Counted from the stretch's first letter, positions 22,159 through 23,748 are shown. The stretch is 64,000 nucleotides of DNA from Promethearchaeota archaeon (GCA_048940925.1 JBHLOC010000018.1:22501-86500), one strand, 5' to 3'. Numbers and translations: made by a program. Notes: a model not told the origin generated them from the letters alone.

Positions 22159-23748
22159 TTATTTATGGTTGATTTGTTCCCCATATCCTATTAGTCGATA
22201 ACGCCTATTAATTATACGAGAAATAGCATATATGAAATCTTCAGGGGGACAAATAGGAGGTGTAAGTTTTATAATAACACTATTTTTTAAAATTTTCGTA
22301 ACAGTCCCACCTGTTTTTTCCGTTCCTACTACAAGTAATAATTTCTCTCCATGTTTGAGAGGTTGAACTTTCATTTGAACTTCAGATCCAATAACTCTAT
22401 CTAAAAGATTTACATTCAGCTCAACTTCGCTAAGAATTTTAGGTAATGTTCCTATTTTTCCAACTAAATGGCCAATTAGATGATCTCCTTTTGTTAACGC
22501 GGGATCTAATTTTGTACCTAACCCTATGAGACCTCCAGGTTTAGCATTTTCCAAAGGATTATTTCCTTGGCTTATACTTACAACCGTAGATTTTAATGGT
22601 ACATACTGATCTTTAACTCGTATCCCCGGGCTAATTTCGATTTGGTCTCCAACTATTATTTTTCCTTTTAAAACAGAGCCCCCTATTACACCACCTTTTA
22701 AATCCTTAATTTCTTTACCTGGACGATTGATATCAAAGGATCTCGCAATTAAAAATTGAAATGACTCCTCCTCTTTAAATTTTGGAGTAGGAATAACCTC
22801 TTCAAAAGCTCTTATTACAAGATTTATATTCGCCCCAAAAACTGCCGATAAGGGTATAATTGGAGCATTTTCAGCAACAGTTCCTTTTATAAATTCTTTT
22901 ATTTGTTGAAAGTTCTCTAAGGCTTGTTCTCGAGAAACAGCATCAATTTTATTTTGTAATATAATAATATTTTTTATGCCCGCAATATTTAAAGCCGCTA
23001 AGTGTTCCCGTGTTTGAGGTTGAGGGCATTGCTCATCAGCTGCAATTAAAAGGCAAGCCCCATTCATTAATGATGCACCACTTAACATAGTTGCCATTAA
23101 TATCTCATGACCAGGCGCATCAACAAATGAGATATTTCTTCTAAATTCTAGATTTCCTTTACATTTTGGGCAAGAGAATCGAGCTTGTCCTTTTTCTCTA
23201 TCTTTTTCTGCAAGATAAGCCGTTGTATATTCATTACATTCGGAACAATAAAGAATTGAGGCATTAGAATACCCTAACTTTATTGAAATTCCTCTTTCTT
23301 GCTCTTCTGAGTGGCGATCAGTCCAATCTCCAGTTAGGGCTTTTACTAGGGTTGTCTATATGTTTCATGAAGGATTCCTTCAAAAAATTCCATGATCAAC
23401 ATGCCCTACAAGCCCTATATTACATTCTGCTTGTTGTTTGATTAATTCTTTTATCTTCTTAGCTTTCTCTTTCGAAACTGGCTTTGCTTTAGGTTTAGAT
23501 ATCGTTTCTTCTTTAATTATTTCTTTCACTTCATCAGATTGTTCTATTTTTTGACTTTTCTTTAGAATTTTTTTAGCATTTGTAATATACTTCTCTGCTG
23601 TTGCTTTTCCAACACCTTTTATTTTTAGCTTTAATAAATCCTTGGGTTCAGCATTTGCAAGTTTTTCAACAGAATCAATATTAGCAGCCTTTAATCTTTC
23701 TGCTGTTGCTTTTCCAATTCCACTTACATCTTCCAATTTATATGACAT
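22159..23748 (-). CDS. eif2g: translation initiation factor aIF2 gamma with N-terminal helix-hairpin-helix extension; two exons join(23748..23388,23357..22159), 519 aa
   Basis: Exon 1 ends [16 protein letters not shown]; exon 2 begins [31 protein letters not shown], then CSEC/CPKC zinc knuckle, DAPGHE, QPQTREH, NKID, RSFDIN. No stop between 23357 and 22159. Confidence 0.93.
23358..23387 (-). other. 30-nt bulge-helix-bulge-type intron in aIF2-gamma mRNA
   Basis: Removing TTTTTTGAAGGAATCCTTCATGAAACATAT restores GGA AAG ACA ACC (GKTT). Both junctions fall after the 2nd nt of 3-nt bulges around a 4-nt central helix. Confidence 0.85.

Follow-up and report, generated by a model that had tools for sequence, protein, structure and literature searches.

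Start-codon selection centres on initiation factor aIF2/eIF2, and no known relatives of eukaryotes are closer than the Asgard archaea. In the stretch of 64,000 nucleotides of a Promethearchaeota archaeon genome analysed here (the window), the gene for the gamma subunit of this factor is interrupted by a short insert, and the frame, read without removal of the insert, gives a stand-alone open reading frame (ORF) of 122 aa that encodes helix-hairpin-helix (HhH) motifs. The question raised by this locus is whether that ORF is the second product of a regulated switch, as a sequence-only reading of the window had proposed, or a consequence of the intron that interrupts the gene. The interpretation favoured here, with a probability of roughly 60%, is that this is the only aIF2-gamma gene, an essential one, of an Asgard archaeon of the Lokiarchaeia type, that its functional product would be the 519-aa protein of the spliced message with an N-terminal tether, and that the 122-aa ORF would be a by-product.

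An aIF2-gamma gene interrupted in its P-loop

The ORF at 23380-23748, with its HhH motifs and a Lys/Glu linker ahead of the G domain, is present as the sequence-only reading described it. It starts at an ATG at 23748 on the minus strand and stops at a TGA at 23380-23382. A domain of the Pfam type HHH_5 comes first, then a disordered linker rich in Lys, and the last part before the insert consists of the initial 16 residues of the aIF2-gamma G domain. Its terminus reads ...VDHG-I-F-TGA, the stop being two codons inside a 30-nt insert (23358-23387, minus strand) that contains three in-frame stops. When the frame is read straight through this insert, an intact aIF2-gamma resumes and continues down to 22159, and when 23358-23387 is deleted, GHVDHG-K-TTLV is restored and the product is a protein of 519 aa. 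Alignment to solved chains places the start of the canonical G domain and the first base of the interrupted Lys codon at the end of exon 1 (23388-23436, minus strand), and the Pfam matches place the rest of aIF2-gamma, with the Cys4 knuckle of the G domain, domains II and III and the stop codon, in exon 2 (22159-23357, minus strand). The P-loop motif GHVDHGKT is complete only once the 30 nt are removed.

The downstream part was matched by the Pfam models GTP_EFTU (E 2.6e-23) and eIF2_C (E 1.3e-21, 77 bits for a cut-off of 22), and by GTP_EFTU_D2 just below its cut-off (28.3 vs 30.3 bits, E 2.4e-6). The core, consisting of a GHVDHGKT G domain, a Cys4 knuckle, domain II and domain III (eIF2_C), is common to the canonical archaeal aIF2-gamma of S. 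solfataricus (2AHO/2PMD), P. abyssi (1KK0) and M. jannaschii (1S0U), whereas the ~105 extra N-terminal residues and the splitting of the gene by a bulge-helix-bulge (BHB) intron set the present gene apart from them. The solved chains align from their residue 4-5, residues 4-21 corresponding to ORF residues 104-120; therefore, the canonical start falls just before ...NIG, where the earlier reading had put it, and the ~103 residues before it, the HhH domain and the linker, are extra. Gene callers cut such genes in two, reporting an "HhH protein" of ~125 aa and a shortened GTPase.

No matches were obtained when the window was scanned with Rfam and for tRNAs. Directly upstream of aIF2-gamma, a 74-aa Cys4 zinc-ribbon ORF was observed (23878-24102, minus strand), with weak matches to Pfam DZR and Zn_ribbon_3; its 3' end lies within the recombination tract described below.

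The HhH domain and its fusion to aIF2-gamma

The two HhH motifs that had been claimed in exon 1 are both there, as the G-h-G hairpins GIGKATAE and KGVGKATAE. The domain that holds them, a RadA/Rad51-N-terminal-like (HhH)2 domain of residues ~4-57 (23578-23739, minus strand), was delimited from Pfam HHH_5, an AF2 model, fold matching and phmmer. HHH_5 matches residues 5-53 (E 7.5e-12, 46 bits vs a cut-off of 27), and in a 41-sequence family alignment both hairpins, with glycines G10, G12, G45 and G47, and the HhH hydrophobic core are invariant, as is the start of the G domain in exon 1. The AF2 model of residues 1-70 (mean pLDDT 84) contains five helices, and its best solved folds are the N-terminal domains of RadA/Rad51 (TM 0.72-0.75, rmsd 1.1-1.7 Å, 29-39% identity). 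The Foldseek E for these was only 3e-3 because the HhH domain is small, and phmmer matched the HhH region to 1pzn with an E of 2.8e-5. The five-helix (HhH)2 fold is common to the RadA/Rad51 domain and the aIF2-gamma extension; the former sits on a recombinase, whereas the host is here a translational GTPase and the RadA of the genome is a separate gene (L062).

The domain is followed by a flexible Lys/Glu/Pro-rich linker of residues ~58-104 (23437-23577, minus strand), recognized by its composition, pLDDT and charge. Among the 41 orthologs neither its sequence nor its length is conserved, but its composition is kept, and its pLDDT is ~30 in the AF2 model of the ortholog from the relative G018. 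The whole N-extension, HhH and linker together, has a net charge of +10. The full-length AF2 model was poor (mean pLDDT 62) and uninformative on whether the HhH domain docks to the core. The functional product would be a protein of 519 aa, in which a RadA-like (HhH)2 domain and a ~45-aa disordered basic linker precede a canonical aIF2-gamma core.

An uninterrupted ORF of 515-549 aa comprising HhH, linker and aIF2-gamma was found in 21/24 of the same-genus genomes first examined, and a six-frame search with exon 2 recovered an ortholog in nearly all of 40 relatives. An order-wide search with exon 1, in which full-length matches adjoining aIF2-gamma were counted, extended the fusion architecture, mostly uninterrupted, to at least 115 of 134 family genomes and to 12 of 13 genera. 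This count is used instead of the raw tally, in which 134/134 family genomes match exon 1; the latter overstates the fusion, because some of the matches are an FKBP paralog and because genus g12 has a Zn-finger instead. When 251 genomes from 30 families of the phylum were sampled, none of the 29 other families gave a full-length match to exon 1. Protein databases hold at least 228 clusters with HHH_5, GTP_EFTU and eIF2_C, from Promethearchaeota/Asgard MAGs, which are labelled simply as "translation initiation factor IF-2 subunit gamma". In a collection of 5.8 billion proteins, a near-identical protein of spliced length from this clade was absent, and the best longer match to exon 1 had 67% identity. 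A literature search found no description of an HhH-aIF2-gamma fusion. The claimed fusion is thus borne out, with HHH_5 and aIF2-gamma domains in one ORF in most relatives, and genome comparison indicates that it is real, conserved at the level of the family and a previously undescribed variant of aIF2-gamma.

A candidate second fusion, in another Asgard family (G177), was rejected, as it turned out to be a stand-alone HhH protein beside an unrelated gene. This protein of 131 aa (L070:1705-2100, minus strand) consists of a basic tail and HhH, and another stand-alone protein, of 118 aa with HhH and a Cys4 ribbon, was observed in the genome of the window itself (L061:1420-1776, minus strand; G000:C39).

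A bulge-helix-bulge intron in the P-loop lysine codon

An insert of 29-32 nt is found at the identical site in at least 27 of the 134 family genomes, spread over seven genera: g1 (6/54), g13 (1/1), g16 (4/4), g18 (1/1), g20 (1/1), g21 (2/10) and g22 (12/42). Its length is 29 nt in 20 of the 27 holders, so that exon 2 is out of frame in these unless the insert is removed. All of the inserts being this short, no sign of a homing-endonuclease gene was seen in the 27 holders. A cut after the second nucleotide of each bulge (NN|N) restores GGN-AAR-ACN (Gly-Lys-Thr) in 27/27. In the window, joining GGA-A to AG-ACA gives GGA-AAG-ACA, and on this reconstruction and the homologous inserts the 30 nt lie inside the P-loop Lys codon, after its first base (A|…|AG).

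The common form of the insert is a canonical hBHBh' structure, with a central helix AUGG/CUAU or AUGG/CCAU, bulges AAU and AAA, and an inner hairpin. In the window, the central helix AUGG/ACAU forms three of its four pairs (with a G.A mismatch) between bulges AA|U and AU|A, and UGAAGG/CCUUCA makes up the inner hairpin; all four central-helix pairs are formed in 20/27 of the homologous introns. An alignment of 26 sequences has the central helix 93% paired, double changes at 8/9 pairs of the inner helix (h') and a covariation score of 0.28 vs 0.13 when shuffled, a value that 0/500 shuffles reached. The central helix of G078, ACGG/CCGU, is a double compensatory change with respect to AUGG/ACAU. 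The exon-exon helix h is weak (2-3 pairs, 60% paired; 2 pairs in the window) and the motif is therefore of the relaxed type. The unconstrained MFE fold of the 111-nt region of the window has a z of -1.8, and the BHB motif is convincing only through the comparison of the 27 sequences, on which the 30-nt insert is a bulge-helix-bulge (tRNA-type) intron.

The intron of the window opens with six T on the coding strand (23382-23387), which could act as an archaeal oligo-T terminator; since the other 26 introns do not conserve this run, it is probably incidental. Two aIF2-gamma alleles on separate contigs were noted in G115 (C165:288-638 and C106:3374-3730) and in G014 (C104 and C211). One allele of G115 bears the intron, its intron region matching that of G125 exactly, and the other is intron-less, which suggests that these two genomes are mixed bins or reflect strain heterogeneity.

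Predicted removal of the intron

The genome encodes two EndA (tRNA_int_endo) paralogs, whose two scores are 102 and 70 bits, and RtcB, at 556 bits. The EndA ORFs lie at C58:74241-74465 and C18:73532-73780 of G000 and the RtcB ORF at C40:219876-221183. The EndA of Asgard archaea is an (alpha-beta)2 enzyme with an L1 loop that tolerates relaxed motifs (PMC5829648). In the mechanism proposed, the pre-mRNA would lose its 30-nt BHB intron from within the P-loop lysine codon, a two-subunit EndA making the cuts and RtcB rejoining the exons, with subunit roles that are predicted. aIF2-gamma is single copy in this genome, the sole strong match having an E of 3.7e-266 and the next ones 6e-10 or weaker; since there is only one such gene, the intron must be removed, and splicing, itself deduced from these features, is on this genomic evidence required here for the full-length protein. 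Translational bypass (hopping) was also considered and, by inspection, rejected: no pair of take-off and landing codons restores the P-loop lysine, and both the restoration of this lysine by exact removal of the insert and the 29-nt length of 20/27 inserts further disfavour it.

The nearest known case is the intron in the cbf5 pre-mRNA of Crenarchaeota (Watanabe 2002), which is patchy, with lineage-specific loss (Yokobori 2009, PMC2738675). A patchy distribution is common to both introns, whereas the present one interrupts another gene, in the phylum Asgard, at a P-loop Lys codon, its splicing is predicted, and there is direct sequence evidence that it moved between species on a recombination tract. 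With it, the very few archaeal mRNAs that depend on tRNA-splicing enzymes would come to include a second family of protein-coding genes.

Recombination origin of the intron

Over a 4.2-kb locus, the genome of the window (G000) is 85-95% identical to the intron-less G018, except for a tract of ~630 nt at ~23337-23969, where the identity to G018 is ~70% and that to the intron holders G054, G003 and G001, a distant clade of the same genus, is 86-92%. The tract, delimited by informative sites, takes in the upstream small ORF at its 3' end, then the promoter region, exon 1 and the intron, and its 3' breakpoint is ~20 nt beyond the latter. Inside it 69/74 informative sites match G054/G003/G001; outside it 201/249 match G018. 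A tree built on the N-terminal 260 residues places G000 with G001/G003/G054, and G018 with the species that are also its relatives for exon 2; therefore, G000 is the recombinant. The informative sites thus indicate that the intron entered G000 on a ~0.63-kb recombination tract, its nearest relative, G018, being without it. In the same tree, the intron alleles form at least six clusters. Together with the tract, these clusters point to an intron that is old, patchy and mobile by homologous recombination, and provide sequence evidence that such introns can spread between species by this route.

The 122-aa ORF in unspliced messages

The sequence-only reading proposed that intron retention yields a free HhH protein, in what could be a two-product switch loosely analogous to HAC1/XBP1. 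One part of this stands, as translation of an unspliced message would stop at 122 aa: archaeal transcription and translation are coupled, and a ribosome on a not-yet-spliced pre-mRNA would make the product of this ORF. The regulated switch is not supported, given the intron-less majority, the unconserved tails and the acquisition of the intron by recombination. The co-occurrence of fusion and intron, suggested as a check, was followed across genomes, and at least 115 have the fusion but only at least 27 the intron. Thus, at least 88 of the at least 115 fusion-bearing genomes are without it, and it is absent in ~80% of the family. As the fusion is mostly an uninterrupted ORF, most of the family cannot make the short product by intron retention. 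The intron was found only in fusion-bearing genes, an association that is confounded by phylogeny.

A deliberate switch would have retention give a free 122-aa HhH and linker protein with a function of its own, for example in competing for the docking site of the full-length factor, while EndA/RtcB capacity tunes initiation. The ORF and its stop are real, and in 27/27 intron alleles the read-through meets a stop 2-14 codons past the 5' splice site; however, an early stop in the read-through would be expected by chance at 29% G+C, and the tails of 2-14 aa that result are conserved neither in length nor in sequence, being as unrelated as IF, NY, IY, IL, MN, MIMSFRHFP and INKTIRLIPLRPR, among others. 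Exon 1 holds what is modelled as a complete, independently folding domain, and Asgard genomes do encode small HhH proteins that stand alone (the 118-aa protein of L061 and the 131-aa protein of L070), but the short product would terminate in an orphan beta-strand of the G domain and half a P-loop. The intron is kept throughout some clades (g16, 4/4; an 11-species clade of g22), which is compatible with a function without requiring one, yet at least 88 family genomes have the fusion without the intron, which in G000 came by recombination and is missing from the nearest relative. The coupling of archaeal transcription and translation means that some unspliced RNA is probably translated, but no sign of EndA regulation was found. 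A switch of this kind is held to be improbable. A scheme that goes further, in which interchangeable cassettes were repeatedly acquired and serve, like the eukaryotic K-boxes, in mRNA or ribosome recruitment, and the free HhH polypeptide of intron-bearing species competes for the docking site with EndA/RtcB feedback on initiation, is considered more improbable still.

At the other extreme, the interruption could be a pseudogenising insertion or an assembly artefact that leaves the short ORF without meaning, as the three in-frame stops in an essential gene might suggest. The same site is interrupted in 27 independent assemblies, however, the insert contains compensatory changes, exon 2 is intact and conserved (94% identity to the intron-less G018 ortholog) and the gene is single-copy and essential; the chance that this explanation is right appears negligible. 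Relatives make a one-piece fusion protein and, consequently, the 122-aa ORF is most likely an unselected by-product of the unspliced pre-mRNA and not a second regulated product, its lack of function being the probable conclusion from these comparisons. Some truncated protein is likely made from unspliced RNA, and the alleles compared carry no apparent sign of selection for it.

In the HAC1/XBP1 system, splicing needs no spliceosome: a structured part of the message is cut by an endonuclease, the halves are joined by a ligase of the RtcB type, and translation of the unspliced form gives a shorter protein that ends in another C-terminus. The present locus resembles it in the predicted non-spliceosomal cut, in RtcB-type joining and in a shorter unspliced form with another C-terminus. 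On the other hand, it is without a sensor-regulated nuclease, its unspliced product is not conserved, most of its orthologs have no intron and no sign of regulation was found. A HAC1-like switch is unsupported on present evidence.

A candidate tether and its alternatives across the order

The N-extensions of aIF2-gamma across the order are all net basic (+6 to +33), from +9 to +11 for the HhH form and from +23 to +33 for the K/S/T-rich tails of families f2-f4, which are 80-116 aa long and begin with MAKKKKK. In genus g12, a C2HC Zn-finger (CPYCGKEFKRLSAHKC) with a K-rich linker replaces the HhH domain (L074:1237-2688 in G075; L075 in G077). The HhH domain would thus be one of several interchangeable N-terminal cassettes in the order, along with the Zn-finger and the K/S/T-rich tail. 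In eukaryotes, the N-terminal K-boxes of eIF2-beta and the N-terminal extension of eIF2-gamma are basic and flexible and bind RNA or partners. The present extension is likewise basic and flexible and likewise attached at the N-terminus of a subunit of the complex, but the K-boxes are on another subunit and without an HhH domain. A conserved, lineage-specific add-on of the gamma subunit, with other cassettes in sister lineages, suggests that the recruitment of the ternary complex to RNA was being modified in this group.

The same module was found on other proteins. In another Asgard family (G262), an eL32 carries N-terminal HhH repeats and a Lys-rich linker (L071:437-1372, minus strand; Ribosomal_L32e E 5e-32, HHH_5 E 7e-16), and the HhH region of the window also matches the N-terminal part of PDB L32e/eL32 chains (1jj2_X, 9l94_Q). 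HhH-extended eL32, as in G262 and in H. marismortui L32e (1JJ2 chain X), has HHH_5 and a Lys-rich linker on a translation protein as here, the difference being that the host protein is here aIF2-gamma; the eL32 of the window's own genome (G000:C3:38138-38455) is without the extension. The closest paralog of HhH and linker, with 50% identity over 82 aa, is the N-terminus of an FKBP-type PPIase found in the family to which the window's genome belongs.

In the mechanism proposed, HhH and basic linker would act as a sequence-independent nucleic-acid tether through which aIF2 binds RNA with a higher local affinity, the RNA being rRNA of the small subunit, mRNA or its 5' end. Sulfolobus aIF2-gamma binds the 5'-triphosphate ends of mRNA (PMC3936769). 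The presence of the module on eL32 and FKBP points to a generic tether to RNA or to the ribosome, a reading that is given about even odds. The closest solved folds are, on the other hand, DNA-binding RadA/Rad51 domains, so that the ligand could be DNA rather than RNA. The HhH domain would then bind double-stranded DNA, or else a protein partner, and bring aIF2 to the nucleoid or to genes under transcription, in a coupling of transcription and translation, or recruit another factor. Its nearest folds and sequences are indeed DNA binders, namely RadA/Rad51 N-terminal domains and the (HhH)2 repeats of Topo V, and in one structure the N-terminal lobe of Rad51 binds a histone tail (8xbw); yet a ribosomal protein and an FKBP chaperone carry this module too, and its position on aIF2-gamma is elsewhere taken by Lys-rich tails typical of RNA binders. 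A coupling role could draw on the haloarchaeal initiation-factor interaction network that is reported to couple transcription and translation (PMC8576121), but no partner was identified here. A DNA or protein ligand is regarded as rather unlikely, and a tether to RNA or to the ribosome is the preferred reading of the module.

The FKBP-type PPIase that carries the paralogous module is a protein of ~366 aa with HHH_5, FKBP_C and FKBP26_IF (L064:527-1627 in G054). The HhH-FKBP fusion was found in many genomes of the family and may be a ribosome- or RNA-tethered chaperone; the copy in the window's own genome lies at a contig end (G000:C18:24-257, minus strand; L060:3-257).
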